From Candidatus Pacearchaeota archaeon (GTDB lineage Archaea > Nanobdellota > Nanobdellia > Pacearchaeales > GW2011-AR1), in contig JAVHOF010000037.1 in NCBI GenBank assembly GCA_036169915.1, forward strand, positions 1 through 57,337: a stretch of 57,337 nucleotides of DNA, in the 5' to 3' direction. A program made the translations under genes and the position numbers. This document shows, in pieces, positions 4,342 through 57,240 of this stretch (the first letter of the stretch is position 1; each line of letters opens with the position of its first letter). The notes below the pieces were generated by a model. It worked only from the letters and a program-made list of their open reading frames with translations, searched no databases and was not told the DNA's origin.

Positions 4342-4468
4342 CTCTTTTTATTATAATTACAATTAGAGGCTATTTAAAATTTGCTTTTTATAAGAATAAT
4401 CTGCAGGAGTAAAAATATTTTCTACAAAAAATAGTTTGAAATTTGCTAAAAAAGGTAGAATAATAAGA

Positions 4469-4882
4469 CTATTTCTTAATTTTCAATTCATCAACCAACT
4501 TTCTAACTCTTTTTTTAATATTATCAACCCTTTTTCTAATTCCATCAATATCTTTTTCATCGCAATCTTTTATTTTCCACCATATTATCTTTCCACTATA
4601 GCTATTTTTAAAAAATTCAGGTTGAACATTATTAGCAACAATGATAATCATATTATAATCATTAATTTTTTTAACATCAACTCTTCTTGGAACTCCTCCA
4701 ACCACATAACCTTTTGCTTTCATGATCTTGATAACACTTTCAGAAACATAAAGATGCATTTCATCGATTAAAATTCCAGAGCTTTCAGCAACAATCTTCT
4801 TGTTTTTATTCAATGAATTAAAAATAGCCTCTCCAACTTTGCTTCTAAACCTATTATGTTTGCAGATAAATAAGATTTTCAT
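4469..4882 (-). CDS. Low-molecular-weight phosphotyrosine phosphatase / ArsC-like phosphatase
   Basis: MKILFICKHNRFRS carries the C-x5-R-S P-loop signature of LMW-PTPs. I prefer the ATG at 4882 over 4906 because it directly follows the upstream stop codon. Confidence 0.75.
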   Translation of the reverse strand: MKILFICKHNRFRSKVGEAIFNSLNKNKKIVAESSGILIDEMHLYVSESVIKIMKAKGYVVGGVPRRVDVKKINDYNMIIIVANNVQPEFFKNSYSGKIIWWKIKDCDEKDIDGIRKRVDNIKKRVRKLVDELKIKK

Positions 4883-4883
4883 G

Positions 4884-5216
4884 TTAATAATAAAATCTCC
4901 TTTCATAATCTTTATGATTAAACCATTCTAATATAACTGATAAAATTTCCACCCTATTCAAAGGGTTTAAAGTATAAATCAATCTCCAGCCACTAGGTAA
5001 ATCATATTTCCATAAATTATTTATTTTGTATTTTATAATATATTCTCTAGGAAAAAGTCTTTTAGGAATTTGAATTCCACAATAAGCATTAATCTGCATA
5101 TCGAGTATAGCCCTTTTAATTGATTTTTTCAAATCATCATTATCATCAAGTTCTCCAAATGCCTCTTGAATTCTGTCATTAGCAAAAACAACTTCAGAGG
5201 ATTTTAGGATTCTCAT
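4884..5216 (-). CDS. RelE/ParE-superfamily toxin-like protein
   Basis: The C-terminal pattern NLWKYDLPSGWRLIYTL...VEILSVILEWFNHKDYERRF resembles the RelE/ParE core (LW.YR.G.YRIIY...I..I.H...Y). The gene overlaps the upstream gene by 1 nt. Confidence 0.5.
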   Translation of the reverse strand: MRILKSSEVVFANDRIQEAFGELDDNDDLKKSIKRAILDMQINAYCGIQIPKRLFPREYIIKYKINNLWKYDLPSGWRLIYTLNPLNRVEILSVILEWFNHKDYERRFYY

Positions 5217-5491
5217 TATAATTTAATCCTTTTTCTATTCATGAAAAGTTTAGTAGATTCAGGATTCCATATATAAGCAAGAGTCCCATTTCGATCCATT
5301 GCAATTTTATTTATACTCTGCAAATAATCTAAAACAACAAGATATGTTTGCCACATTACTTTTTTTGGAAGCTTTTTCCACAATTTTGTTCTATTAAACT
5401 CTCCGCTATATTTATTGATAGTTTTTTCAACCATTAAAACCGTATCAAGTGTAGGGCTTCTTGCAATAAAATTTGTTATTACATTTTCCAT
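5216..5491 (-). CDS. Small hypothetical protein, possible winged-helix partner of the RelE-like gene
   Basis: The ORF is in the track. I prefer the internal start MENVITNF... because the upstream extension is hydrophobic, low-complexity sequence. The stop overlaps the start of the RelE-like gene. Confidence 0.45.
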   Translation of the reverse strand: MENVITNFIARSPTLDTVLMVEKTINKYSGEFNRTKLWKKLPKKVMWQTYLVVLDYLQSINKIAMDRNGTLAYIWNPESTKLFMNRKRIKL

Positions 5492-5641
5492 AATATATTG
5501 TATATCAATTGATATATAAATCTTTTTATTAAAGCAAATAACATACGCTAACATTTCTATATTTATAGTATTTAAAAAATCAAAAAAACATTTTGTCACC
5601 TAGCTAGCTCAAAAATAGAAAATAATTATTTTTTCCTATCT

Positions 5642-27612: not shown

Positions 27613-29007
27613 TTATTCTAATCTCCTTTCAAGTATTTTTTTTATTGTTTGGAAATTTGCACGCTTATTTGTTGCGTGCATGACTTGTCCTATTAAAAAA
27701 TTCAAAGCTTTAGATTCTCCTGCTTTAAAATCTTTAATTGATTGCTGGTTCTTATTTATAATTCCATCTATTATTTTTTCTAACTCTTTTTCATCTGAGA
27801 TTGATTGTGATTGTTTTGCTTCCTGCATTGGTGAAAAGGATTTTGGAATAAATTTTCTTAAAATATCTTTAGCTTTTAATGGTGTTATTTTGTTATCTTG
27901 CAATAGATTTAATAGTTCTATTATATGCAGAGGATTAATTTTAACTTTATCCATTGTTTTTTTATTATAGTTTAAAACGCCTAACCATTCTATTGTTATC
28001 CATGGAAGAGCTATTTTAGGAGATATTTTTTCAGCAACACTTTCAAAAAGTTCAACAATCTCAAGATTTTTAGTAAGGACTTCTGCATCTTCTTTATTCA
28101 GTTTATGTTTTTTGACCAATTTGTCTAATTTTTCCATAGGAGATTCAGGAAGATTTTTTTTAATTTCATCAATTCTTTGTTTTGTTATTTTTAAAATAGG
28201 CAAATCAGGGTCTGGAATAAATCTATAATCTTGTGCTTCTTCTTTGCTTCTCATAAGTTCTGTTTTTCCTGTTTCAGAATTCCATCTTCTTGTTTCTTTT
28301 GTTTTAGGTTTTTCTTTCTCATGTCTTGAAATCTCTGAATTTATAGCTCTTACAATTTCAGTTATTGAATTAACATTTTTTATTTCAGCTCTTTCTGAAA
28401 TTCCTTTAATATTAACATTAACATCTGCTTTTATTCCTGCGTCTTTGTTAAGTGCTTTGATATATGATAATGTTAATACTAATTGTCTTAGCCAGTTTTC
28501 AACTTGTTCTGCATTTTTAAAATCAGGTTCTGTAACAATTTCAACTAAAGGTGCTCCTGCTCTATTGTAATCTATTTTTCCTGTTTCAGGATTCCATGCA
28601 GCAGGATCTTCTTCTAAATGTACTTCTCTTATTTTTATTCCTAAAAATTCCCCATTTTCAGCAACAGGAATTGAATAGGCTCCTGAAATTGTTTTTTGGT
28701 ATCCTGTTGGCATGTCTGGCCAATTGTAGTGTTTTCTTTGAAAAATCAGAGGTTTTTTATTTTCAATTATATTTGCATTGCAGTTTAGCATTAGCCCTAT
28801 TTGAAGAATTTTATCAACAGCTGACTTATTTGGAAGCATTGGTTTTGCTCCTGGCTGTCCAGTGCATATTGGGCAGATGTTTTCGTTTGGTTCTATAATC
28901 TTCATGTCATGAAAATTCCTGCAAGTGCAGAAAAGCTTTTCATCTGTATCTATATATCCATGAATTTCTAAACCTATCATGGAATCAGTTTCTTTTTTAT
29001 GTTCCAT
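27613..29007 (-). CDS. gatB: Asp/Glu-tRNA amidotransferase subunit B
   Basis: Motifs include IGLEIHGYI...KLFCTC, CPICTGQPGAKP and EVHLEEDPA, with a C-terminal YqeY-like tail. The start is ambiguous (29025, 29007 or 28980). Confidence 0.9.
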   Translation of the reverse strand: MEHKKETDSMIGLEIHGYIDTDEKLFCTCRNFHDMKIIEPNENICPICTGQPGAKPMLPNKSAVDKILQIGLMLNCNANIIENKKPLIFQRKHYNWPDMPTGYQKTISGAYSIPVAENGEFLGIKIREVHLEEDPAAWNPETGKIDYNRAGAPLVEIVTEPDFKNAEQVENWLRQLVLTLSYIKALNKDAGIKADVNVNIKGISERAEIKNVNSITEIVRAINSEISRHEKEKPKTKETRRWNSETGKTELMRSKEEAQDYRFIPDPDLPILKITKQRIDEIKKNLPESPMEKLDKLVKKHKLNKEDAEVLTKNLEIVELFESVAEKISPKIALPWITIEWLGVLNYNKKTMDKVKINPLHIIELLNLLQDNKITPLKAKDILRKFIPKSFSPMQEAKQSQSISDEKELEKIIDGIINKNQQSIKDFKAGESKALNFLIGQVMHATNKRANFQTIKKILERRLE

Positions 29008-29065
29008 AAAAAATAAAGAAAACATAAGTTTAATAAAGTTTCTTTATGTAAAAATTTAAACAAAA

Positions 29066-32592: not shown

Positions 32593-32666
32593 AAAAGACA
32601 TTAAAAAGGATATGAAAAATGAAAATTCAAAATTTAATTGAGTGTAAGGAGGTAAATAAAAAACAA

Positions 32667-34760
32667 ATGAAAAATAAAAATTTATTTTTAATTTTGGGAA
32701 TTGTTTTAGTTTTAATTTTGTCTGGATTTGTAAGTGCGCTTGCAATAGGTGACAAGGTGGAAGTGTATAATACTGGAAACAGTGGATTGCTTGTTCTTAG
32801 CCCTAATGCTTGCAGTTCTTCAATTGGAGTTAAATTTAATGGAGCAAGGGGGACTATTACAGCTGGTCCTATTTATTGCAGCTCTTATAATCGCTGGAAA
32901 GTTACATGGGATGGAGGTCCTACTGGATGGAGTGCTGAAAATTGGTTGAGAAAAGTTGTTACTTGCACCAATCAATGTTCATCTGGACAAATAAGATGCA
33001 ATGGATATTACAAACAAAGCTGTATTTCCAGCAATGGATGTTGGATATGGGGTGGAGATACTTATTGCAGTAATGGATGTGCTTATGGACAATGCCTTGG
33101 TGGTTGCACTCCAAAAACATGTTCTCAACTTGGAAAACAATGTGGAGCATGGGATAATGGTTGTCAGCAATCAATAGATTGTGGAACTTGTTCTTCTGGT
33201 AAAACTTGTTCAAATGGACAATGTGTAAGTGGAGGAAGTTTGCCTACTTCTATAATCTCGCCTGTTGATGGTAATCTTGAGATTGTCAATACTTTAGGCG
33301 CTTGTTCAAATACAAAATGGTGTTTTAATCAACATAAAACAGGAGGGCATGTGCCAGGTGGAGGAATATGTAAGGCAGATGATACTTATGCTTGGGATGC
33401 TAATCTTAATTTTCCTAGTCAAGATTCTGATAAAGGTAAACCTGTTTATTCAGTTGCTTCTGGAGTTGTCACAAGTCTCTATGGAGGATGTACAAATGCC
33501 GGAGGGTCTTATGGGCAAGTATTAATTGAACATAATTATAATGGAAATAAATGGTGGAGTGGATATTTACATATGGGAAATATTCAAGTGAAAACTGGAC
33601 AGAGTGTAAACGAAAATACAATTTTAGGGTATGTGTCAAATACAGGAGTATCTGATGGTAATAATCATTTACATTTTGTAGTCTATAAAGGTTCTAACAC
33701 TAATGGAGGGTTAGTATCATTTAATTTAAACATAAATCCTAGAAATAATGGTTGTACTCCTCAATGTTCTGGAAAACAATGTGGAAGTGATGGATGTGGT
33801 GGAAGTTGTGGCAGTTGTTCTAATGGAAAAACATGCAATTCAAATGGACAATGCGTTACTTCATGTACTCCAAAAACATGTTCTCAACTTGGAAAACAAT
33901 GTGGGGGATGGGATGATGGATGTCAAAAATCAATAAATTGTGGCAGTTGCTCTAATGGAAAAACATGCAATTCAAATGGACAGTGTGTAAGTGGTTGTAC
34001 AAATCAATGTACTTATAAAACCAATAGATGCAATGGACAAAATTCAGAATATTGTACAGATTATAATGGTGATGGATGTTCTGAATGGATTGTACAAAGA
34101 GTTTGTGATTATGGGTGTAACAATAATAATGGTTTTTGTTATATGTGTACTCCTAATTCAAAATATTGTTATGGAAATTGGATTATGAAATGTAGTTCTG
34201 ATGGTTCTAGCGCGAGTGGAGATACTTATTGTAGCAAGGGATGTAATAATGGGGCTTGTATTAATAGTTGTACTCCAAATTGGAATTGTGGAGCTTGGTC
34301 AACATGTTCGAATAATCAACAAACAAGAACATGTACAGACTCTAATAATTGTGGAACAAATAATGGGAAACCTGCTACTTCGCAAAGTTGCAGTGCTTCT
34401 GGAAATAACCATAATTCAGATTGTACATTTATAACAAACATTCAACCAGCAGGATCAACATGGGTAATAGAAGATTATCTGAATTCTCCGGATGGAAAGA
34501 AATGGTTAGCAATGGATATAACTGGTGATGGAATTAAAGAAATATTTGGTTATATGAGTGGTTCAAGTACTGATTCATGCCCACCAGATAATATTTATTG
34601 GCACACATCACCAATTTCTGCATTAGGAGGTTTTATGCTAAAATATTATTATTCTTCAAACAATATTGAAAAGCAATTATTTGTTTGTGATAATAATAGA
34701 TTTGCAGCATACTCTTCGACCCGTAATATACCAACAAACCCTGACATTAGTTGCCCATAA
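32667..34760 (+). CDS. Secreted Cys-rich multidomain protein with an M23 (LytM-type) peptidase-like domain
   Basis: GGAGG lies about 13 nt upstream of the ATG at 32667. A signal peptide is followed by an SH3b-like N-terminal domain. The M23-like core is [11 protein letters not shown]...YGQVLIEH...WWSGYLHM...[17 protein letters not shown]. Repeated Cys-rich modules ([35 protein letters not shown]) are also present. Confidence 0.8.
33105..33992 (+). repeat. Repeated Cys-rich module coding units inside the M23-like gene
   Basis: Near-identical DNA (..ACTCCAAAAACATGTTCTCAACTTGGAAAACAATGTGG..) starts at 33105 and at 33864. A shorter related module lies at about 33753-33863. Confidence 0.8.
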
Positions 34761-36944: not shown

Positions 36945-38243
36945 ATGAAAAAACCTTTTATTAAGCCAGAACCAGGAGATAAAGTTGAAGTGCTTATAAA
37001 TAATAAAAGAGAAACAGGAATTCTTTTGGAGTCGCATGATTCTGGAATTCTTTTATTGAAACTGGATAATGGTTATAATCTTGGACTGAAAAAAGAAGAT
37101 ATTTCTGAAATAAAAGTCATTGAAAAAGGTAGGATAGAGGAAAAAACTGAAGCTAAATTTGAAATATCTCATAAAAAACCTATTATTGATTTTATTGTTG
37201 TTGGAGGAACTATAACAAACAAACTTGACCCTAAAACCGGAGGAGTGACTAATTTGATTAATCCTCAGGAATTATTTTTAGTTTATCCTGAGGTTTTTCA
37301 GTTTGCAGATATAAGAATTCATAATCCTTTTATGAAAGCAAGCGAGAGCATGAATTTTCTTGATTGGATTAAAATAGCCAAGATTGTTGAAAAAAGTTTG
37401 AATAATGAAAATGTTAAAGGGGTTATTATTACTCATGGAACTGATTTTTTGCATTACACAGCAGCTGCATTAAGTTTTATGCTTCCTAATTTAAACAAGC
37501 CTGTTGTGCTGACTTATTCTCAAAGGTCAAGTGATAGAGGTAGTGCAGATTCAAGATTAAATCTTATCTGTTCTGCGCATGCAGCTCTTAGTGATATTGC
37601 AGAAGTAATGATTGTTGGACATGCAACAATAAATGATAATTATTGCTATGCTCTTTCTGGAACAAAAACAAGAAAAATGCATACTTCAAGAAGAGATACT
37701 TTTCGTGCTATTAATACAAAGCCTATTGCAAAAATTTTTCCAGATGGAAAAATTGAATCTATTAAAGAGTATAATAAAAGAAAATCTGGAAATTTTAAAA
37801 TAAAAACTGATGCGGTTTTTGAACCTAAGGTTGCTTTAGTAAAATTTTATCCAGGGCAAGATCCTAATATTTTAGATTATTATAAGAAAAAAGGATATAA
37901 GGGGATTGTGATTGAAATGTGCGGGTTAGGACATGTGTGCACTGAAGGAAAATTCAATTGGTTACCTAAATTAAAACAAATAATAAGCTCTGGAATTTTT
38001 GTTTGCGCTGCTCCACAGACATTATACGGAAGATTAGACCCTTATGTTTATGCTCCTCAGAGAAAGATTTTGGAAACAGGAGTTGTTTTTTTAGAAGATA
38101 TCTTGCCAGAAACAGCATTTGTAAAACTTGGATTTGTTTTAGGACATAAGATATGGAGAGGAAGTGTTGCTACTCGTGTAAAAATGCTTGAAAATATTTC
38201 AGGAGAATTTAATAAAAGATTAGGCAATGAGTTTTTGGATTAA
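36945..38243 (+). CDS. gatD: Glu-tRNA(Gln) amidotransferase subunit D
   Basis: An N-terminal small beta domain (GDKVEV...) is followed by an asparaginase fold (GGTI, ITHGTDFLHYTAAALSF, and a C-terminal domain). Confidence 0.9.
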   Translation: MKKPFIKPEPGDKVEVLINNKRETGILLESHDSGILLLKLDNGYNLGLKKEDISEIKVIEKGRIEEKTEAKFEISHKKPIIDFIVVGGTITNKLDPKTGGVTNLINPQELFLVYPEVFQFADIRIHNPFMKASESMNFLDWIKIAKIVEKSLNNENVKGVIITHGTDFLHYTAAALSFMLPNLNKPVVLTYSQRSSDRGSADSRLNLICSAHAALSDIAEVMIVGHATINDNYCYALSGTKTRKMHTSRRDTFRAINTKPIAKIFPDGKIESIKEYNKRKSGNFKIKTDAVFEPKVALVKFYPGQDPNILDYYKKKGYKGIVIEMCGLGHVCTEGKFNWLPKLKQIISSGIFVCAAPQTLYGRLDPYVYAPQRKILETGVVFLEDILPETAFVKLGFVLGHKIWRGSVATRVKMLENISGEFNKRLGNEFLD

Positions 38244-40033: not shown

Positions 40034-40813
40034 ATGAAACGTGAAATATATAATTTAGGAGATGAGGAATTTGCTTTTTTTATAAATAGAATTGCAGAAG
40101 AACTTAGATATAGAGATATTCCTTATGCTTTTGTAGGCGGTGTTGCTGTTCAATCTCAGATTTTAAAAAGGCTTACTAAAAAATATAATGCAGATATATC
40201 TCATCTTATATTAAATAGTGATGTAAGATTTCAAGATTATGTAAGAGCTACTGATGATGTAGACCTTGCTTTGAAGTTTCCAACAGATGAAAAAGGTAAT
40301 GTTAGTCCTGAAAATCTTGAAAAAATCATAGATGTCTGTGAGCATATAGAAGGCGTTTATTTGTCAGGAGATCATAAACATCTTTTTGAATATCTATTGC
40401 AAAGAAATGGAATAAGAAGACCTGTTTTTAGTGTTTCTATTGATGACAATCAACAGGAAAATTTATTTCTGAATATATCTAGAGAATCTAGAAATTTAAG
40501 AAGGATAAGCTATCAATTTTATGAAGAATTCATAGATGCTGGAGAAGATTTAACAATTCCTTATAGCTCTTCTTTTAGTTTACGAATTAAAACTTATAGG
40601 CCTGAACATATTTTAGCTACAAAAATATCTCAATTAAGAGCAAAAGATATGATGGATATAAAAAATCTTGTTGAAATTATGCAGCAATGTGGAGAGGAAG
40701 TAGATGCTAAGGAACTTGAAAGGATTTTAATACCTTGTCATTTAATAAATTATGAAAGATTTGGGTCTCTAACAGGAATATCTGTTGATGTTGATTTAAA
40801 TGGACATTCTTAA
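40034..40813 (+). CDS. Nucleotidyltransferase-fold protein (AbiEii-like)
   Basis: The sequence is YAFVGGVAVQSQ....VRATDDVDLAL, which fits the GG...R.T.D.D pattern. Confidence 0.4.
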   Translation: MKREIYNLGDEEFAFFINRIAEELRYRDIPYAFVGGVAVQSQILKRLTKKYNADISHLILNSDVRFQDYVRATDDVDLALKFPTDEKGNVSPENLEKIIDVCEHIEGVYLSGDHKHLFEYLLQRNGIRRPVFSVSIDDNQQENLFLNISRESRNLRRISYQFYEEFIDAGEDLTIPYSSSFSLRIKTYRPEHILATKISQLRAKDMMDIKNLVEIMQQCGEEVDAKELERILIPCHLINYERFGSLTGISVDVDLNGHS

Positions 40814-40853: not shown

Positions 40854-42296
40854 ATGGAAATAAAAAAGGAAATTAAATGCGGGCTTGAGATTCATCAGCA
40901 GCTTGATACACATAAACTGTTCTGTGAATGTCCGAGCATTTTGAGAAATGATGCTTCGAGTTTTAAAGTAAAAAGAAAGCTTCATGCTGTTGCAGGTGAG
41001 AGCGGGGAAGTGGATATTGCTGCAAAATATGAAGCTTCTAAGGACAGGGAATTTGTTTATTATGGTTATGATACTACTTGTTTAATTGAGCTTGATGAAG
41101 AACCACCTCATTTAATTAATTCAGAAGCATTGAAAATTGCACTGCATATTGCGCTTCATCTTAATTGCGAAATTTCTTCTATTTCTCAGATAATGAGAAA
41201 AACAGTTGTTGATGGTTCAAATACATCTGGTTTTCAAAGAACAGTCTTGATTGCAAGAAATGGTTTTGTTGAAACCAAATTTGGCAGGGTTGGAATAAGA
41301 ACTCTTTTATTAGAGGAAGATGCTGCAAGGCCTGCGTCTGGAAATGAAGAGGGAAATGAAAACATTAAGGTGTATAAATTAGACAGGCTTGGAATTCCAT
41401 TAGTTGAAATTGCAACAGAACCTGATATTAAAAGTGCTGAACAAGCTAAAGAAGTTGCATTACTTATTGGAGATGTTTTAAGAAGCTGCAAAGTCAGGAG
41501 AGGAATCGGTACGATAAGACAGGATGTAAATATCAGCATTTCAGGGCATCCAAGAATTGAAATAAAAGGTTTTCAGGATGTTAAAATGTTTATTTCTGTT
41601 ATTGAAAATGAAATTAAAAGACAAGAAGAAAATCTCAGATTAAAAAAAGATTTGAAAAGTGAGGTTAGAAACTCAAGTGCTGATGGAACAACTAAATTTT
41701 TAAGACCCATGCCCGGAAGTTCAAGAATGTATCCTGAAACTGACTTGCCTTTGCTTAGAATCTCAAGAGAAATCATCAATGATGCAAAAGCAACATTGCC
41801 TAAATTAAGAAGTGAAATCAAATCAGAATTAAAAGAAAAAGGACTTTCTGAAGAAATGATTAAATTATTGTCTCATGGAGATAAGATAGAAGAGTTTGAA
41901 TCTTTATTAAAAATAATAAATGAACCTAATTTTATTGCAAAAGTTCTTTTTATTTTTCCAAAGGAAATTGCAAGTCATGAGAAAATTGAAAATATTGATG
42001 ATATTCTTAATCTTGATGTGATTGAGTCAATAATCAATGCTGTTGAAAGGAAAAAAATTCAGAGAGAAGATGTGAAGCATGTCATGGAAGAGATTGCCCT
42101 CGGAAAAAAATTTGAAGATGCGATTAAGCTTGAGAAATTTGATTTATCTGATATTGAATCTGAAATTGCAAAAATTGTTAAAGAAAAACCTGACTTGTCA
42201 ATTGGCGGATATATGGGATTAATTATGCAGAAATTTAAGGGCAAGGTAAATGGTAAAGATGCCACTGAAATACTTGGGAAATTGATAAAACTTTAA
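40854..42296 (+). CDS. gatE: Glu-tRNA(Gln) amidotransferase subunit E (short form)
   Basis: Motifs include CGLEIHQQLDTHKLFCECPS, LEEDAAR, IEIKGFQD and RMYPETDLP. At 480 aa it is shorter than the GatE lengths of about 600+ aa that I recall. Confidence 0.85.
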   Translation: MEIKKEIKCGLEIHQQLDTHKLFCECPSILRNDASSFKVKRKLHAVAGESGEVDIAAKYEASKDREFVYYGYDTTCLIELDEEPPHLINSEALKIALHIALHLNCEISSISQIMRKTVVDGSNTSGFQRTVLIARNGFVETKFGRVGIRTLLLEEDAARPASGNEEGNENIKVYKLDRLGIPLVEIATEPDIKSAEQAKEVALLIGDVLRSCKVRRGIGTIRQDVNISISGHPRIEIKGFQDVKMFISVIENEIKRQEENLRLKKDLKSEVRNSSADGTTKFLRPMPGSSRMYPETDLPLLRISREIINDAKATLPKLRSEIKSELKEKGLSEEMIKLLSHGDKIEEFESLLKIINEPNFIAKVLFIFPKEIASHEKIENIDDILNLDVIESIINAVERKKIQREDVKHVMEEIALGKKFEDAIKLEKFDLSDIESEIAKIVKEKPDLSIGGYMGLIMQKFKGKVNGKDATEILGKLIKL

Positions 42297-42703
42297 TAAA
42301 CTATAATAATTCTTTCTTCAGATTCCTTATCTTTTCTTTCTCTTTCTTGTTCTTCTTCTAGTTGTTTAAGCCATTCTTTTTCTTGTTTTTTAGTGTATTC
42401 CTGTTCTCTTTTATCTTCTTCTTCAACATAATGTTCATAACCAGCAAAATTTATTCTTATACCTTTGATTCTATTTCCCAAAACTCTGAATGCCAAAGTT
42501 TCTGATAAATATTTTCCATTATGTTTTTGAGAACTAAAAAATTCATTTCTTATATGTGCAAGACCTTTTTCATCAAAAATATCTATAGAATGAGTTTTGC
42601 AATAATTCCTTATTCCTTGCTGGGTTAAATAACATAAACTTTCATTGTTATGTCTTAATGGAATTTCTTCTAATCTTTGTCTTAAGTATTTTTTAAGAGA
42701 CAT
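42293..42703 (-). CDS. Hypothetical protein with an E/K-rich C-terminus
   Basis: ORF in the track. Confidence 0.45.
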   Translation of the reverse strand: MSLKKYLRQRLEEIPLRHNNESLCYLTQQGIRNYCKTHSIDIFDEKGLAHIRNEFFSSQKHNGKYLSETLAFRVLGNRIKGIRINFAGYEHYVEEEDKREQEYTKKQEKEWLKQLEEEQERERKDKESEERIIIVY

Positions 42704-42780
42704 TTGCTTACAAAATATTTAACCCTATAAAAATCTTTTGGAACAAAAGATTTTAAAAACCTTGTATTTCTGTATTAAAT

Positions 42781-44202
42781 ATGTTAAGGACACATAATCT
42801 AGGTGAAATTAATGAAAATCTCATTGGAAAAAAAGTGAAACTTTGTGGATGGATAGATGTCACTAGAGAGCATGGAAAGGTTATTTTTCTTGATTTAAGA
42901 GACAGATATGGAAAAGTTCAGAGTGTTGTTGTTTCTAAAAATTTAGATTTTGAGGTTGTTAAAAAATTACCTAAAGAATCTTGTATATCAATTGAAGGAA
43001 CTGTAAATGCAAGACCCAAAGGAAGTGAGAATATAAATATTCCTAGTGGTAAGGTGGAGGTATTAATTGATAAGGTGCATGTCATGAATAGTTGTCCTGA
43101 ATTACCTTTTCAATTAGATGAAAAAGGAGTCAATGAAGAAATAAGATTAAAATATAGGTTTTTAGACTTAAGAAGAGAAGAACTGCAGAAAAATCTTCTT
43201 TTTAGACATAAATTAATAAAATCTTTTAGAGATTATTTTGATAAACATAATTTTATCGAAGTTGAAACTCCTATGCTTGGAAAATCAACTCCAGAAGGTG
43301 CTAGAGATTATGTTGTTCCTTCAAGAGTAAATCCTGGAAAATTCTATGCTCTACCTCAATCACCTCAATTATATAAACAATTATTAATGGTTAGTGGATA
43401 TGATAGATATTTCCAAATTGCTAAATGTTTAAGAGATGAAGACCTTCGTGCTGATAGACAACCAGAATTCACACAATTAGATGTTGAAATGAGTTTTGTT
43501 GAGATGGAAGATATATATACTATTGTTGAAGGATGTTTGAAACATGCATTTAAAGAAGTTTTAGGAATTGACTTGAAAACTCCTTTTAGAAGAATTTCTT
43601 ATGATGAATCTATGAAAAAATATAAAAGTGATAAGCCTGATTTAAGGCCTGAAATAAAAGAGAAATATGCATTTTGTTGGATTGTGGATTTTCCAATGTT
43701 TGAATATTCAAAAGAAGAAGAAAAAATAGTTGCAGCTCATCATCCTTTTTGTATGCCAGAGGATTTATCAAATAATCTTGAAAAAAATCCATTAAAAATA
43801 AAGGCTAAGACTTATGATTTAGTTCTAAATGGAACTGAACTTTTAAGTGGAAGTATTAGAATCCATAATCCTGAAATACAATCTCGTGTTTTTAAGATAC
43901 TTGGAATAGGAAAAGAAGAATCTGAAAAAAAATTTGGATTTTTATTGAAAGCTTTATCTTATGGAGCTCCGGTTCATGGAGGATTTGCCATTGGTTTAGA
44001 TAGATTAATACAGATTTTAGCTGAAGCTGAATCTATAAGAGAAGTGATTGCTTTTCCAAAAAATCAAAGTGCTCAGGATGTAATGTCTGAAGCACCTGCG
44101 GATTTAACTGATAAACAATTAAAGGAAGTTTCTATAAAATTAGATTTGCCTGAGAAAAAAGAAAATAAAGATAATTCTAAAAAAACCAGAAAAAATAAAT
44201 AA
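42781..44202 (+). CDS. aspS: Aspartate--tRNA ligase, bacterial type, lacking the GAD insertion domain
   Basis: VKLCGWI...[68 protein letters not shown] and [10 protein letters not shown]...IREVIAFPK are close to E. coli-type AspRS. SDKPDLR joins almost directly to WIVDFPMFE where the insertion would normally lie. Confidence 0.9.
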
Positions 44203-44207
44203 AATTA

Positions 44208-44321
44208 ATGCATGCAGGCTGGGGGGCTGGTGTTGAAAGAATAACTATGTTATTATTGGGATTGCCTAATATTAGAGAAGCTGTACTTTTTCCAAGAGAC
44301 AGAGATAGATTAATGCCTTAA
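44208..44321 (+). pseudogene. Relic of the C-terminus (motif 3 onward) of an archaeal-type AspRS
   Basis: My own translation is [37 protein letters not shown]. It matches the archaeal/eukaryotic class IIb ending (PHAG.G.G.ER..M...G..NIRE..LFPRDR.RL.P). A stop codon lies 4 codons upstream of the ATG, so only the tail survives. Confidence 0.7.
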
Positions 44322-44468
44322 TTCTAATGATTACTAAACTTATAATTTTTATTAGATTTAAAATTAGTAAAAGCAGATTTTATAATTGATAATTCTTATC
44401 AGCAAGTATTTAAACTATTAAAAGAATTAAATATTAGATAACAAATTTTTTATAAGGATATATTCATT

Positions 44469-44951
44469 TTATAATAAACAAAATTCAAATGGAATAGTTC
44501 CTTCTATTATTCTATGAGCTTCATAGCCTGCTCTTGTTAAAGCATCTCTTTGTATTTTAACATAGTCTTCTCCACAAAAACCACATATTCCTATTGGACA
44601 TTGCCATGGCAATACTGGAAGATGAGGTATTTCATAAGGTTTCATTTTTCCCCAGATGTCAAAATGAGGAAATCTTTTTCTTAAAGCTTCTATGTCTTTT
44701 AGACATAAATCAAGATCTTCAATATCTCTTTTATTAAGTTCATCATAGGTCATATGAGTCAAATCTCCATAGGCAGCATCTATTGCATACATTATTATAA
44801 CAAAAGGATTCTTTAATTTAGAAACAGAGGTGTAATTAGAATTTTCTGGCCTGAAAATCTCAAGCAATGAGGTTCTTTGCAATCTTACATCTCTAGTTCT
44901 TCTTGCTAAATCTTCATTACTATTAAAATCACTGTTTGGCAATTCCAACAT
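44469..44951 (-). CDS. Hypothetical protein (orphan; contains CPIGICGFCG)
   Basis: ORF in the track. Confidence 0.45.
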   Translation of the reverse strand: MLELPNSDFNSNEDLARRTRDVRLQRTSLLEIFRPENSNYTSVSKLKNPFVIIMYAIDAAYGDLTHMTYDELNKRDIEDLDLCLKDIEALRKRFPHFDIWGKMKPYEIPHLPVLPWQCPIGICGFCGEDYVKIQRDALTRAGYEAHRIIEGTIPFEFCLL

Positions 44952-44995
44952 TTATTATATTAGAAAATAGTGTTTATTAATTTTACTAATGGAAA

Positions 44996-45340
44996 TTAAT
45001 TAGAATAAGGTAGTTCTTGTTTGTCAAATTCTCTGTAAATATTGTTTCTTAATTCATGCAATCTATCAAATACTAATCCTTCTGGAATATTGTTTGGAAT
45101 AGCTAATCTAACTTGATAATCATGAGAATTTCTTGAAACTAATATTGTGAAAGGACCTGTTATAATTTTTGTTTTTCCATTAGTTTCAAGCTCTTCAGCA
45201 TGTCTTTTAGCTAGTTCTTTAATATCCATTATAGTAAAAGGGGCTGATTTAAGAGGGCTTCTATAAAATAATCTTTCACATATTTCTAAAGAAGTTTGTA
45301 GAAATGTTCTTTCATCCAAAGATGTTGTTTGAGGTGACAT
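44996..45340 (-). CDS. Hypothetical protein (orphan)
   Basis: ORF in the track. Confidence 0.45.
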   Translation of the reverse strand: MSPQTTSLDERTFLQTSLEICERLFYRSPLKSAPFTIMDIKELAKRHAEELETNGKTKIITGPFTILVSRNSHDYQVRLAIPNNIPEGLVFDRLHELRNNIYREFDKQELPYSN

Positions 45341-45357
45341 TTTTTTTGAATATAAAA

Positions 45358-45407
45358 CCCTGGAAGAGCCAGTTTCATACTAAAAGTATGTCTTTGCTCT
45401 TCTGGGG
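45358..45407. ncRNA. Candidate structured RNA element or GC-rich nested hairpin
   Basis: CCCTGGAAGAGC pairs with GCTCTTCTGGGG over 12 bp, including 2 G-U pairs. This stem encloses an inner hairpin CATACT-AAA-AGTATG. The element is an isolated GC-rich feature in an AT-rich divergent intergenic region. Confidence 0.3.
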
Positions 45408-45537
45408 AAAAGAGGTGATAATATATATTAGAATAGCTAATATTTAAACCTTTCGATTTTGTATTAACTTACTAGTGATAACTAAATAAAAAGATTTTTA
45501 AATACTCTTTTGCGTATTAAATTACTAGGAGTATAAG

Positions 45538-45969
45538 ATGATAGATACTGAATCAGGATTTGATTGCTATGAAAGAAGTTTAGATATAGATCATAGAAGC
45601 AGTTATCCTAAACTTAATGCTCATCATAGATTTCAATGTAGGGGGTATCAGGATAATAAAAAGTCTGTTAGAACTTTGGATTCTGAAGCTAATTATGAAG
45701 GTGATATTATTTCAGCAAGAGTTAAATATTTACTCAAAAACCATCCTGAAATAGCTGAAGAATTCTCATTGAAAAAAGATTTAGGTTGTTTAGCTTTAAA
45801 ATATTTGAGAGGTGATTATATTTATTTTTCTAAAAGAATTGCAAAAATGGCTGTTTATGACGTTCTTGTTAAACTATTGGGAAGTTCTGCTTTAGATGGA
45901 ATTGAAAGAGACCCTTCTCTTGGATGGGATAATAATGGAAAAGGAAGAAAGAAGAAACGAAAAAAGTGA
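45538..45969 (+). CDS. Hypothetical protein with a basic C-terminal tail
   Basis: ORF in the track. Confidence 0.45.
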   Translation: MIDTESGFDCYERSLDIDHRSSYPKLNAHHRFQCRGYQDNKKSVRTLDSEANYEGDIISARVKYLLKNHPEIAEEFSLKKDLGCLALKYLRGDYIYFSKRIAKMAVYDVLVKLLGSSALDGIERDPSLGWDNNGKGRKKKRKK

Positions 45970-46024
45970 AATAATAGTTTTGGTGAAAGAGTATATTTAT
46001 AAATTATTTTTAATTTAGATTATT

Positions 46025-46822
46025 ATGAAAATTTTAGCTATTGGAGATCCACATGGAAATTTAGATAAAATTAAAAAAATTTCTTTAAGAAATGTGGATT
46101 TAATTTTATTGACTGGAGATTTGGGAGATGCTAGTCTTATGAGAAAAATGGCTTTTGAAAATGTGGCTAGAAAAAAACAAGGTTTGCAAGAAAAAGAATA
46201 TTCTTCAAAAGAGAAAAAAAGAGCATTCATGGAGTCTTATAATTCAGCTATAAAAATAGTTAGATATTTAGCAAGATTTGCACCTGTTTATACTGTATTT
46301 GGAAATGTTGAAAATTCAAATCCTGAAACAAGGGAGAATTCAAGAGATATTGGATTACCTTTGCCGTTTTTAACAAATGATTTAAATTTAATTGAAGGGG
46401 TTAGAATAATAAATAATAGGATTGCTAATTATCGTGGAATTAAAATTGGTGGATTAAACTATTTTGTTGATACAAGTTGGATTAGGGAGTTTAAACCTTC
46501 AGATTTTAGGGAAAAAATGGCTAATGCAAAAAAAGAAACAGATAAAGCAAGAAGAGTTTTAAATCAATTTGGAGAATTAGAGATATTGATTTGTCATCAA
46601 CCCCCATATGGGGTGTTGGACAAAGTGACTGCCAAATTTGCACCAAAGCATTGGTTAGGAAAACATGCAGGAAGTAAAGTAATTTTAGATTATATAAAAA
46701 AATATCAACCTTCATATGTTTTTTGTGGACATATTCATGAAGGAAAAGGTATGAGAAAAGTTGGAAAGACTGAAGTTTATAATTTGGGAGTTGTTGGATA
46801 TAAAATTATAGATATTAATTAA
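46025..46822 (+). CDS. Calcineurin-like metallophosphoesterase
   Basis: The family motifs appear in order: GDPHGN, LLTGDLGD, GNVE, CHQPPYG and CGHIHEG. Confidence 0.8.
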   Translation: MKILAIGDPHGNLDKIKKISLRNVDLILLTGDLGDASLMRKMAFENVARKKQGLQEKEYSSKEKKRAFMESYNSAIKIVRYLARFAPVYTVFGNVENSNPETRENSRDIGLPLPFLTNDLNLIEGVRIINNRIANYRGIKIGGLNYFVDTSWIREFKPSDFREKMANAKKETDKARRVLNQFGELEILICHQPPYGVLDKVTAKFAPKHWLGKHAGSKVILDYIKKYQPSYVFCGHIHEGKGMRKVGKTEVYNLGVVGYKIIDIN

Positions 46823-46927: not shown

Positions 46928-47173
46928 ATGAATAGAACTATAAATTCAGAAAAGGTTCAGAAAGAAGCAAAACATATTCTTGATAAATTTGCATTAGCTC
47001 TTGAAAAAGTTGAGCATGAACACGACTTAGATTTTTATGTTGAAAGAGAAGAATTTGAAAGAAAAGAAGGAAAAAGAAAAGGAAATTCCAAGGAATTTAA
47101 GGAAAAGATTCTTGAAAATGCTCCTAAACATGATAAAGACTTTATTATTGCTGAAACTGGGAGCTGGAAATGA
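46928..47173 (+). CDS. gatC: Asp/Glu-tRNA amidotransferase subunit C
   Basis: The C-terminus ILENAPKHDKDFIIAE resembles the bacterial GatC ending (..NAP...DGY..VP). The protein is small and sits in an operon with gatA. Confidence 0.65.
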   Translation: MNRTINSEKVQKEAKHILDKFALALEKVEHEHDLDFYVEREEFERKEGKRKGNSKEFKEKILENAPKHDKDFIIAETGSWK

Positions 47174-47535: not shown

Positions 47536-47937
47536 ATGAGAAGGAAAAAATTATTGTCTAAAAGTCTTGATGAAATAGAATCTGATTTAGACATGGAAGT
47601 AATTAATGCTCATGATTGTATGGCAACTGCTTTAGAAGAATTTGAAGGAAGAATTATTCAAGCGTGCAGAGTCGGACATACTCTTGTTAGAGATGCTCAA
47701 TTAAAAATAAAAGGGCTTTTTGATTATTTATCAAGACCTGAAAGTTCATTGAAACTTTCTGAAAGAGATAACACTTATTTTAGAGAAATGTATAGTAAAA
47801 TTTTAGATAAATATAATTTATTTTTAGATGAGCATGGAATTGTCAAAGGAGCAAGGGTTGGAAGATTTATTAAAGATGCCTCTTCTGGTTATTCAAAAAG
47901 TGTTGTTGAAGATCCATTCAGGAGTTTTAGAACATGA
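47536..47937 (+). CDS. Hypothetical helical protein (paralog of 47170..47520)
   Basis: ORF in the track. Its stop overlaps the start of the next gene (ATGA). Confidence 0.55.
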   Translation: MRRKKLLSKSLDEIESDLDMEVINAHDCMATALEEFEGRIIQACRVGHTLVRDAQLKIKGLFDYLSRPESSLKLSERDNTYFREMYSKILDKYNLFLDEHGIVKGARVGRFIKDASSGYSKSVVEDPFRSFRT

Positions 47938-48185
47938 AGGATATGATAAAATTAAGAAAAGAAATAAATAAAATAGATAGAGAAACAATTAGATTATTAA
48001 GAAAAAGATTTGAAATAAGCAGAAAGATTGGAGATTATAAAAAGAAAAATAATCTTAAGATAAGAGATTTAGAAAGGGAGAACAAAATAATAGGGGGAAA
48101 AATAAAAGAATCTAAATTAAATAAAATATTTGTTAAAAATTTATATAATCTTATTTTTAGAGAATCAAGGAGAATACAAAAATGA
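47934..48185 (+). CDS. AroQ-type chorismate mutase-like protein
   Basis: LRKEINKIDRETIRLLRKRFEISRKIGDYKK......D.ERE matches the CM type 2 helix pattern. The gene is 83 aa long. Confidence 0.6.
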   Translation: MKDMIKLRKEINKIDRETIRLLRKRFEISRKIGDYKKKNNLKIRDLERENKIIGGKIKESKLNKIFVKNLYNLIFRESRRIQK

Positions 48186-49519
48186 TAAAAGAAAAATTAA
48201 AATTGATAAAAGAAGGAAAATTAAGTGCAGAGCAGAATATTAGAAATCTTATTGAGAAAATAAAGAAAGAAAATTCTGAAATTAATGCTGTTTTGCATAT
48301 AAATGAAAATGCTGTTAATCAGGCTAGAGAGATTGATAAAAAAATTAAAAATAATAAATCTGGAAAATTAGCAGGATTGGGTTTTGTTGTTAAAAGCAAT
48401 ATAAATGTTTTAGGATTAATATGCAATTGCGCTTCTCGCACTTTGGAAAATTATAAATCTACTTATAATGCAAGTGTTATTGAGAAACTTTTGAAGGAAG
48501 ATGCAATTGTTCTTGGAATGGCTAATATGGATGAGTTTGCAGCAGGAGGTAGTGGTGAAAATAGCGTATTTGGAATAACTAAAAATCCTCGTGCACCTGA
48601 TAGAATTCCTGGAGGCAGCTCAAGTGGAAGTGCTGCAAGTGTTGCAGCTGGATTTTGTGATTTTGCTCTTGGAAGCGATACAGGGGGAAGCATAAGAAAT
48701 CCTGCTTCACATTGCGGAATTGTTGGAATGAAACCGAGTTATGGAGCTGTTTCAAGATATGGATTAATAGACTTATCAATGAGCTTGGATCAAATAGGTC
48801 TATTGACAAATAGTGTTGATGACTGCAAAATTATTTTTGATATAATAAAAGGAAAAGATGAAAGAGATTCTGTTACTAGAGATTTTTCTATTGAAAAAAA
48901 AGATATTAAGAAAATTTTTATTGGAATTCCTAAAATAAGGGCAAATAAGGAAATTTGGGATTTAGTGTTAGAAAGAGTTGATGAGATTTGCAAGAAGAAT
49001 AATTGGAAAAAAGAGAATTGTGAGATAAAACATATTGATTTGGGAATACAAACTTATTATCCTATTAATTATGTTGAATTTTTTTCAGGTACAAGAAAAT
49101 TCGATGGAAGAAAATATGGATTTAAAATTGAAGATGTTTGCGGAGAAGAAGTTTTAAGAAGAATTTTAGGTGGACAGGAGATATCTAAGGCAGAATTTGC
49201 AGGAAAATATTACAGAAGAGCGTTAAAAGCTAAAAGGATAATTGAAAAAGAATTTGAAAATTCTTTTAAGAAATTTGATGTTTTGATAATGCCTACTGTT
49301 CCTAGAACCCCTCATAAATTTAAAGAAAAAATAAGTGTTGAAGACATGTATAATTATGATACTCTGACTGTTTTAGCAAATCTTGCCGAAATTCCTGGAA
49401 TTTCAGTTCCTTGCGGAACAATTAAAGAACAAGGAAATGAAATTCCTATTGGTATGCAGATTCTTGCTTCTAAAGGGGATGATGATTTTTTGCTTGATGT
49501 TGCGAAGATTTTCAATTAG
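48182..49519 (+). CDS. gatA: Glutamyl-tRNA(Gln)/Asp-tRNA(Asn) amidotransferase subunit A
   Basis: The amidase signature GGSSSGSAASVAAGFCDFALGSDTGGSIRNPA is present. Confidence 0.9.
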   Translation: MIKEKLKLIKEGKLSAEQNIRNLIEKIKKENSEINAVLHINENAVNQAREIDKKIKNNKSGKLAGLGFVVKSNINVLGLICNCASRTLENYKSTYNASVIEKLLKEDAIVLGMANMDEFAAGGSGENSVFGITKNPRAPDRIPGGSSSGSAASVAAGFCDFALGSDTGGSIRNPASHCGIVGMKPSYGAVSRYGLIDLSMSLDQIGLLTNSVDDCKIIFDIIKGKDERDSVTRDFSIEKKDIKKIFIGIPKIRANKEIWDLVLERVDEICKKNNWKKENCEIKHIDLGIQTYYPINYVEFFSGTRKFDGRKYGFKIEDVCGEEVLRRILGGQEISKAEFAGKYYRRALKAKRIIEKEFENSFKKFDVLIMPTVPRTPHKFKEKISVEDMYNYDTLTVLANLAEIPGISVPCGTIKEQGNEIPIGMQILASKGDDDFLLDVAKIFN

Positions 49520-57167: not shown

Positions 57168-57240
57168 CGTCCCGGAGAGGACTCGGACCTCTGACCCTTC
57201 GATTAACAGTCGAATGCTCTACCAACTGAGCTACCGGGAC
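57168..57240 (-). tRNA. tRNA-Asn (anticodon GUU)
   Basis: Reverse complement: GUCCCGG-UA-GCUC..GAGC-A-UUCGA-CUGUUAA-UCGAA-GGGUC-AGAGG-UCCGAGU-CCUCU-CCGGGAC-G. Confidence 0.9.

Follow-up and report, generated by a model that had tools for sequence, protein, structure and literature searches.

A bacterial-type aspS followed by the 3' remnant of an archaeal-type aspS in a Pacearchaeota gat gene cluster: a probable trace of allele exchange

Mosaic operons and xenologous gene displacement in situ were reportedly described by Omelchenko et al. in 2003 (Genome Biology), where they are said to have been inferred from phylogeny and gene order only. Homology-facilitated illegitimate recombination in naturally transformable bacteria is likewise said to have been reported in 2002, by de Vries and Wackernagel and by Prudhomme et al. 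Among aspartyl-tRNA synthetases (AspRS), a bacterial-type discriminating AspRS1 and an archaeal-type non-discriminating AspRS2 are found together in Thermus thermophilus and Deinococcus radiodurans (PDB 1efw, 1n9w and 3kfu). Replacement of homeoalleles of aminoacyl-tRNA synthetases (aaRS) by recombination in conserved flanks, with synteny kept, is proposed in PMC3191353. The current work concerns aspS, the gene of AspRS, in one stretch of DNA from Candidatus Pacearchaeota archaeon (contig JAVHOF010000037.1, 57,337 nucleotides, hereafter the window), to which all searches for other aspS or asnS genes in this genome were limited. The window is AT-rich, with a GC content of about 30% around the aspS locus, and there an intact bacterial-type aspS is followed almost immediately by the last 37 codons of an archaeal-type aspS. 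Replacement of an aaRS gene is usually inferred from trees and gene order, whereas in this case the breakpoint can be located to within one or two bases. The 37 codons are quite probably the non-functional 3' stump of an archaeal-type aspS that was ancestral to the slot between gatE and gatC/gatA, and that has since been swapped, recently, for a bacterial-type aspS among Pacearchaeota.

The intact aspS is located at 42781-44202 on the plus strand, ends with a TAA stop codon at 44200-44202, and encodes a protein of 473 amino acids (aa), presumed to be the working and probably non-discriminating enzyme. The protein scores 699.5 bits with NF001750 (cutoff 443) and 626.5 bits with TIGR00459 aspS_bact (cutoff 373.85), and the archaeal-type AspRS models give it 218-239 bits, under their cutoffs. 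Pfam places the anticodon-binding OB-fold (PF01336, tRNA_anti-codon) at residues 19-100 and the class IIb core with motifs 1-3 (PF00152, tRNA-synt_2, profile positions 1-308 of 308) at residues 118-429. Pfam gives no match in the protein for the GAD domain (PF02938), an insertion of about 130 aa placed after motif 2 and before motif 3. The best structural relative is the AspRS of Pseudomonas aeruginosa, 4wj3 (E 8e-148): residues 1-292 align with residues 9-301 of 4wj3 and residues 294-456 with residues 433-594, leaving the 131 residues of its GAD insertion (302-432) without a counterpart. The bacterial C-terminal extension after motif 3 is present (residues 430-456 against 568-594 of 4wj3). 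The top PDB matches are tied between the non-discriminating 4wj3 and the discriminating 1efw. The initial annotation, made from the sequence alone, had described the gene as bacterial in type and as lacking an insertion domain of about 130 aa; the profile scores bear out the first point, and the missing PF02938 match together with the 131 skipped residues bears out the second.

The remnant (44208-44321, plus strand) consists of the last 37 codons of an archaeal-type aspS, from motif 3 to the C-terminus, and a stop codon, in another frame than the bacterial-type gene. In the PDB its 37-aa peptide matches 3i7f at 513-548 of 548 residues (E 1.2e-9) and 1b8a at 403-438 of 438 (E 9e-9). From its second residue it runs to the last residue of 1b8a, 3i7f and 4j15, and also of human and yeast AspRS (E 1e-9 to 7e-7). 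It covers positions 403-438 of 438 in NF003483 (E 1.9e-14) and positions 393-428 of 428 in TIGR00458, and reaches 36.7 bits with PF00152 (cutoff 25). Motif 3 and the FPRDR.RL.P C-terminus of the family are present and end at the last position of the model, and the matches to bacterial-type AspRS, AsnRS and LysRS are much weaker. Judged by these alignments, the peptide is an archaeal/eukaryotic-type AspRS C-terminus, with a match far beyond chance, and its first description as motif 3 plus that ending holds to the final residue. Only 37 of some 430 residues are left, with neither an anticodon-binding domain nor motifs 1 and 2, so that it is a fragment of a gene.

The boundaries of the remnant are sharp. 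As had been noted at the outset, its frame is closed four codons before the ATG at 44208, by a TAA at 44196-44198. This ATG is an internal Met codon in the closest relatives (...YGAP-M-HAGWG...), and DNA similarity to the archaeal-type aspS of three of them (L056, L058 and L046; fetched loci are referred to by L numbers) begins exactly at 44208, with none upstream. Past the stop codon of the remnant no DNA similarity to relatives is seen, and the relatives also differ among themselves there. A tblastn search with eight full-length archaeal-type enzymes (E < 5) found no further piece of an archaeal-type aspS in any frame of the window.

Full-length archaeal-type AspRS occur in many metagenome-assembled genomes (MAGs) of Pacearchaeota, Woesearchaeota and Nanoarchaeota, with C-termini 80-95% identical to the remnant. 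The enzyme of L056 is identical at 35 of 37 positions and scores 456.7 bits with TIGR00458, 'aspartate--tRNA(Asn) ligase' (cutoff 368.4). The best match is to a full-length Pacearchaeota enzyme, P0131 (JGI, 448 aa, on a 6505-bp contig, named 'nondiscriminating aspartyl-tRNA synthetase'), which is identical at 36 of 37 positions and differs only at T36; the peptide, put to archaeal AspRS as initially suggested, does match a class IIb C-terminus. P0131 and the remnant also share a rare Ala in GWGAG; among the sampled sequences, the destroyed gene probably has its nearest relative in P0131.

Between the aspS stop codon and the remnant lie the five bases AATTA (44203-44207, plus strand), the recombination or deletion breakpoint. 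The remnant had been placed 6 nt downstream of aspS; the two do adjoin, with five intervening bases, six being the start coordinate minus the end coordinate. Ten Logan contigs, assembled independently of one another out of different runs (SRR254905xx), span the junction with a nucleotide identity of 99.6-100%; nine of these are at least 99.99% identical, and the remnant itself is identical in all ten. The exact 37-aa peptide is encoded on 16 contigs and the aspS product on 11. Because ten independently assembled contigs reproduce it, the junction is not an assembly chimera. A fusion of aspS and the remnant by read-through or frameshifting was also considered and rejected: the frames differ, the TAA at 44196-44198 closes the frame of the remnant, and there is no canonical slippery site.

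The same slot was compared in relatives. A scan of species-representative genomes gave 160 relatives, of which 80 loci, with archaeal-type aspS, were kept. In 36 of these 80, belonging to Pace-, Woese- and Nanoarchaeota, the archaeal-type aspS lies directly 3' of gatE and on the same strand. Downstream of it, gatA is present in 35 loci, both the gatE and gatA flanks are present in 27, and a metallophosphoesterase homologue follows in 11; in several loci, for example L023, L037, L048, L060, L024, L028, L071, L070 and L075, it is 51-68% identical. Many of the remaining loci are cut by contig ends or do not belong to DPANN archaea.

For the bacterial-type form, the 120 best homologues of the 473-aa protein were used. 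They are 59-99% identical and 446-538 aa long (one is a 326-aa partial), and by this length all of them therefore lack GAD; the named carriers among them are MAGs of Pacearchaeota and Nanoarchaeota. A bacterial-type AspRS that is 89% identical, P0127, is encoded on a 29-kb contig. Besides the window, eight other distinct loci have a bacterial-type aspS in the same gat neighbourhood (L001/L002, L003, L004, L101, L179, L180, L182/L183 and L184/L185), and none of the eight has an archaeal-type remnant downstream of it. The order gatE, aspS, (metallophosphoesterase), gatC/gatA is thus common to both forms of aspS. Gene order thus places the remnant at the native position and in the native orientation of the 3' end of an archaeal-type aspS. 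Displacement at the same locus, as the initial annotation proposed, is supported by several results: intact archaeal-type aspS of relatives occupies the slot between gatE and gatA, the ATG of the remnant is an internal Met codon, and weakly conserved right-flank open reading frames (ORFs) recur in the archaeal-type L056 and L054.

The two forms are interleaved on a reference tree of GatE, built by neighbour joining with 200 bootstraps and representing a single flanking gene, not the species. The window and the bacterial-type carriers L001, L003 and L004 form a clade with the archaeal-type L046 and L054 at 99% support. Within this clade the bacterial-type L003 pairs with the archaeal-type L054 (92%) and the bacterial-type L001 with the archaeal-type L046 (79%), and monophyly of the four bacterial-type carriers receives 0% support. 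The further bacterial-type carriers L182, L184 and L179 are placed among other archaeal-type lineages. The distribution of the aspS forms therefore conflicts with the phylogeny of GatE, one flanking gene. A discordance of identities in L179 (AspRS 85%, GatA 55%) was rejected as proof of transfer: its synonymous divergence (dS) of 2.6 fits a distant genome, and rate variation explains the difference.

The age of the scar was approached through Nei-Gojobori estimates of dS and nonsynonymous divergence (dN). The bacterial-type aspS of the window differs from its nearest relatives, L001, L003 and L180, by dS of about 1.0 and dN of 0.096-0.158, and the archaeal-type genes of clade members differ among themselves by dS 0.85-1.3 and dN 0.08-0.117. 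The remnant, compared with the same 37 codons of L056, L058 and L046, gives dS 0.85-1.0 and dN 0.046-0.10; against L054, dS is saturated. Its dN/dS against functional genes is about 0.05-0.1, indistinguishable from that of functional-gene pairs. T36M is the sole change in the remnant that no relative shares with the window; 98 of 120 relatives have T at this site and none has M. In a neutral simulation, the probability of no stop codon and at most two amino-acid changes falls below 0.05 once the divergence is at least 0.08 substitutions per site, and the terminal branch, measured toward the closest bacterial-type gene in the sample, has a length of about 0.5. A neutral remnant would therefore have an age of no more than about 0.08 substitutions per site, which puts the truncation in roughly the final sixth of the branch, provided that selection no longer acts on the small ORF. 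The remnant, which had been called a fossil, looks young.

The bacterial-type aspS itself is another matter. It occurs widely among Pacearchaeota, and in eight other distinct loci it fills this slot with no remnant beside it, so that its first transfer from bacteria must be much older than the scar. What the scar records is more likely a later exchange within Pacearchaeota than that first transfer. Of the first proposal, that a horizontally acquired AspRS replaced the archaeal gene in place, displacement at the same locus stands, and the event at this locus is better sought in an exchange among Pacearchaeota.

The two aspS forms would accordingly act as homeoalleles, divergent forms of one enzyme exchanged by recombination among Pacearchaeota. 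A bacterial-type allele from a related, unsampled Pacearchaeote may have recombined into the slot, with one crossover in or near conserved left-flank DNA. At the other end, an illegitimate join would have linked a point 5 nt past the stop codon of the incoming gene to the last 37 codons of the resident one. One-sided illegitimate recombination is expected to yield this order of parts, namely a complete incoming gene, a 5-nt junction and a resident 3' end. The stump would now be neutral DNA between two convergent genes, probably within the 3' untranslated region (UTR) of aspS. Being readable, it gives both a direction, the archaeal-type gene being the one destroyed at this locus, and an indication of recency.

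Several points weigh against this history. Only 57 kb are in view, and a second complete archaeal-type aspS, or an asnS, may lie elsewhere in the genome. Every sampled relative, whichever its type, is separated from the window by dS of about 1, with no close donor or recipient among them, and because of this the direction and mechanics of the last event are not readable from the flanks. The left breakpoint is not resolvable from the upstream intergenic DNA either, since the promoter regions of both allele types are alike. The GatE gene used as reference could itself recombine, and amino-acid identity discordance such as that of L179 may reflect differences in rate. The low dN/dS of the remnant is equally expected from continued purifying selection on a small ORF.

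A different sequence of events would begin with insertion of the bacterial-type aspS between gatE and the archaeal-type aspS, followed by long coexistence of the two in tandem and a recent deletion of the archaeal-type gene that began just past the stop codon of the bacterial-type aspS and spared the 37 codons at its end. This course is rather doubtful, yet it accounts for the placement of both the bacterial-type gene and the remnant at the depth of the clade base (dS of about 1) while the remnant looks freshly inactivated. Coexistence followed by loss is one of two routes of homeoallele replacement given in PMC3191353, and AspRS1 and AspRS2 do coexist in Thermus and Deinococcus. The surveyed loci speak otherwise. 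Tandem bacterial- and archaeal-type aspS were found in none of the 88 distinct loci, and the two forms never occurred within 4-6 kb of each other in the fetched loci; in particular, a bacterial-type aspS lies within about 2.7 kb upstream in 0 of the 80 archaeal-type loci, and neither an archaeal-type gene nor a piece of one lies 3' of aspS in the eight other bacterial-type loci. No intermediate is seen even in close members of the clade (L046, L054, L056 and L058; L001, L003, L004 and L180).

The exchange might also have run in the reverse direction, a bacterial-type lineage having recently taken up DNA of an archaeal-type relative by way of homology in the right flank, with the illegitimate left end of this DNA inside the aspS of the donor, so that the 37 codons are the edge of the imported DNA. 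Such an abortive import, which seems unlikely, would equally account for a young stump beside an older bacterial-type gene, and a join just after the stop codon is the nearest position that spares an essential gene. The full-length enzyme with 36 of 37 identical C-terminal residues (P0131) also exists in another metagenome. However, the import needs the same kind of one-sided illegitimate event, with no gain in parsimony; the right-flank ORFs are only weakly similar to those of any archaeal-type relative, and no imported tract is recognisable. The replacement favored here, the tandem deletion and the reverse import are all exchanges between alternative aspS alleles at one locus.

Retention of the 37-aa ORF under purifying selection, as an expressed micro-protein, such as a motif-3 peptide binding a class II synthetase, or as a selected 3' UTR or terminator element, is very improbable. 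The ORF has an intact ATG and stop codon, begins 5 nt past the aspS stop codon, where translational coupling is possible, shows dN/dS of about 0.05-0.1, and is reported as a gene by both the NCBI and the Logan gene callers. An exapted micro-ORF would, if true, account for the near-perfect conservation and for the intact ATG and stop codon. In one such scheme, to which we would give very little credence, a translationally coupled micro-ORF yields an exapted motif-3 peptide that modulates the dimer of the GAD-less AspRS or the docking of GatCAB, or the DNA serves as an essential 3' end or terminator. Against this, none of the eight other distinct bacterial-type loci has the ORF, its sole unique change replaces a highly conserved Thr, and its ATG is merely an inherited internal codon. 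No Shine-Dalgarno-like sequence precedes the ATG. As an integral strand-helix of the catalytic core, motif 3 is not expected to fold in isolation.

A homologue search with the 37-aa peptide gave five matches and no conserved micro-ORF family; the other short matches are full genes that have been cut or frameshifted, or scraps at low coverage. Three candidates for a stand-alone short ORF were rejected: L015 is a frameshifted full gene from an archaeon of 64% GC, L017 is cut by the end of its contig, and L018, on a contig of 514 bp, is an interrupted gene. A separate case is L016 (858-bp ENA contig, 1.5x coverage), in which positions 158-340 encode the last 53 codons of an archaeal-type aspS, 96% identical to L033. 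This piece is preceded by stop codons and by sequence without AspRS similarity; L016 could be a second displacement scar with another breakpoint, or a low-coverage misassembly.

Least credible is a stray duplicate, or an assembly or binning artefact, of an intact archaeal-type aspS located elsewhere: only one 57-kb window is in view and archaeal-type aspS is common in co-occurring Pacearchaeota, but the junction stands in ten independent assemblies at 99.6-100% identity, the remnant has its native syntenic position and orientation, and, as a weak argument, no archaeal-type protein at least 80% identical to the type of the clade shows the signature of the population (NCBI plus Logan, at least ten contigs).

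The genes around aspS form a cluster for tRNA-dependent amidotransferases. To the left, gatE (40854-42296, plus strand, 480 aa; NF003107 491 bits, cutoff 456) serves as the synteny anchor. This upstream neighbour had been read as GatB-like; it is GatE, and the true gatB lies 14 kb away, at 27613-29025 on the minus strand (TIGR00133 400 bits, cutoff 314.8; 57% identical to the GatB of L179), where it completes GatCAB. The partner of GatE, gatD, is located at 36945-38243 on the plus strand (NF003217 427 bits, cutoff 310). To the right, a metallophosphoesterase gene (46025-46822, plus strand; Pfam Metallophos on the identical gene in L005) and gatA (48182-49519, plus strand; TIGR00132 470 bits, just below the cutoff of 481) are synteny anchors, and gatC lies between them at 46928-47173 on the plus strand (TIGR01827 55.6 bits, cutoff 52.1; NF000681 59.5 bits). 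A tRNA-Asn (GTT), the substrate of the indirect Asn pathway, was identified by ARAGORN and Rfam at 57168-57240 on the minus strand.

The window GatE aligns with residues 10-283 and 404-613 of the 618-aa GatE of L179, and lacks the central AspRS-like (GAD-type) insertion of the canonical 617-618-aa GatE (L046 429-2282; L179 897-2753). The genome of the window has GAD-less forms of both AspRS and GatE. Other genes nearby include a 259-aa ORF between gatD and gatE (40034-40813, plus strand) with a borderline Pfam match to the AbiEii nucleotidyltransferase toxin (E 5.6e-5, 23.6 bits, cutoff 22.5); of the fetched relatives, L063 alone has it at this position. An 83-aa ORF (47934-48185, plus strand) overlaps the start of gatA by 4 nt, has a precomputed Pfam CM_2 assignment (chorismate mutase type II), and takes the same position in L003 and L180. 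A 713-aa protein (32619-34760, plus strand) shows weak similarity to M23/LytM-type peptidoglycan endopeptidases at residues of about 272-358 (E 1e-5 to 1e-3), which is unexpected in an archaeon; its target may be a bacterium, either a host or a neighbour.

The spacers on both sides of aspS (42297-42780 and 44322-46024) and their equivalents in relatives are hot spots of gene-content variation. The left one is a variable spacer holding a 136-aa ORF (42293-42703, minus strand), located between gatE and aspS and without a homologue in any fetched locus. The aspS spacers of relatives hold unrelated small ORFs, often on the minus strand: L001 has one of 437 aa, L003 one of 113 aa, L046 one of 156 aa and L054 one of 97 aa. 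The variable right spacer at 44469-45969 contains ORFs of 160 aa (minus strand), 114 aa (minus strand) and 143 aa (plus strand). The 160-aa ORF resembles L004 6554-6859 (27% identity), and the 143-aa ORF resembles sequences of L056, L054 and L003 (30-43% identity). Homologues of weakly conserved right-flank ORFs (143 and 116 aa) lie 3' of aspS in the archaeal-type L056 and L054 and in the bacterial-type L003, L004 and L180. The variation in gene content fits repeated recombination at the aspS locus.

A TTTAAAAACC(T/C)...TTTCT box is shared by the window (42745-42780) and by the 35 nt 5' of aspS in L180, L004, L001, L056, L046 and L033. It ends about 10-25 nt before the ATG of both types of aspS, and a generic promoter-like TTTAAAAACC box stands 25-35 nt before the ATG of both allele types. 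The box resembles an archaeal TATA/BRE promoter from which a near-leaderless mRNA would be made, and the bacterial-type gene would then be driven by a native-looking archaeal promoter. A promoter and terminator scan gave counts not over the shuffled expectation, with no site in or adjoining the remnant.

The gene context also bears on the function of the surviving enzyme. GatA, GatB, GatC and tRNA-Asn are encoded in the window and no AsnRS was found in its 57 kb, the two observations from which the acquired enzyme had first been called probably non-discriminating; some relatives have asnS beside an archaeal-type aspS. According to a review (PMC9499178), archaeal GatCAB acts specifically on Asp-tRNA-Asn, and the archaeal Asn-transamidosome is without the GAD domain. 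Because archaeal GatCAB serves only the formation of Asn-tRNA-Asn, the bacterial-type enzyme, if it is the sole AspRS, must charge both tRNA-Asp and tRNA-Asn and so be non-discriminating, as the archaeal-type enzyme that it replaced presumably was. A GAD-less bacterial-type AspRS may suit archaeal GatCAB, and its occurrence beside that complex without the hallmark GAD domain bears on the architecture of the Asn-transamidosome.

In relatives, a second class IIb synthetase lies directly 3' of the archaeal-type aspS in L051 (about 4296-5549), L057, L062, L074, L077 and L079. That of L051 is an AsnRS (TIGR00457 433 bits, cutoff 342.6), and some lineages of Pace- and Nanoarchaeota therefore have the direct route to Asn-tRNA-Asn; several also have gat genes nearby. 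GAD-less bacterial-type AspRS of about 450 aa, 44-54% identical, were also observed on metagenome contigs without gat synteny (L099-L117 and L125, GC 29-57%), which extends the range of the GAD-less form beyond the Pacearchaeota clade. A metagenome scan with the alignment of bacterial-type AspRS returned mostly ordinary bacterial genes, because its automatically chosen patterns are universal in bacterial AspRS; only L101 was a useful further Pacearchaeota-like locus.

Gene swaps of this kind are already known, and the locus is a clean and unusually explicit instance that overturns nothing. The literature search found no paper on bacterial-type AspRS in DPANN archaea. Among described enzymes, the non-discriminating AspRS of the P. 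aeruginosa transamidosome (4wj3) is similar in its anticodon-binding domain, catalytic core and bacterial C-terminal extension; it has the GAD insertion (302-432), however, and the 473-aa AspRS does not. Thermus and Deinococcus have the same two AspRS genres and the same link to GatCAB-dependent synthesis of Asn-tRNA-Asn, and both of their PDB families were matched by the two pieces described here. In those bacteria both genes were kept and the archaeal-type gene was the acquired one, whereas in this archaeon the acquired gene is bacterial-type and GAD-less and the archaeal-type gene was destroyed.

With regard to mechanism, homology-facilitated illegitimate recombination predicts one homologous anchor, one illegitimate join and a truncated resident gene, which fits the structure of this locus. 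It is reported from naturally transformable bacteria and is not known from DPANN archaea. As in xenologous displacement in situ, an acquired distant gene of the same function has taken the position of the resident in a conserved cluster; unlike the cases of Omelchenko et al. 2003, a 111-nt remnant here marks the breakpoint to one or two bases.

The closest parallel is offered by the aaRS homeoalleles of Andam, Williams and Gogarten, namely bacterial TyrRS and archaeal ThrRS and SerRS. In that account (PMC3191353), as in the present case, two divergent forms are patchily distributed in one group, each locus has one form in the same syntenic context, the distribution conflicts with a reference tree, and exchange through recombination in conserved flanks is proposed; for the Pacearchaeota, the presence of a single form was seen over the 4-6 kb of each fetched locus. 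The present system differs in that the enzyme is AspRS, the organisms are Pacearchaeota (DPANN), and one allele is bacterial-type without GAD. With two interchangeable aspS forms in the gatE-aspS-gatC/gatA cluster, Pacearchaeota provide an example of homeoalleles for AspRS and for DPANN archaea, and the system could serve to measure recombination and biased gene transfer in uncultured organisms. At the locus described here the losing allele has also left a physical stump behind, a kind of remnant that is not mentioned in the available portion of PMC3191353.

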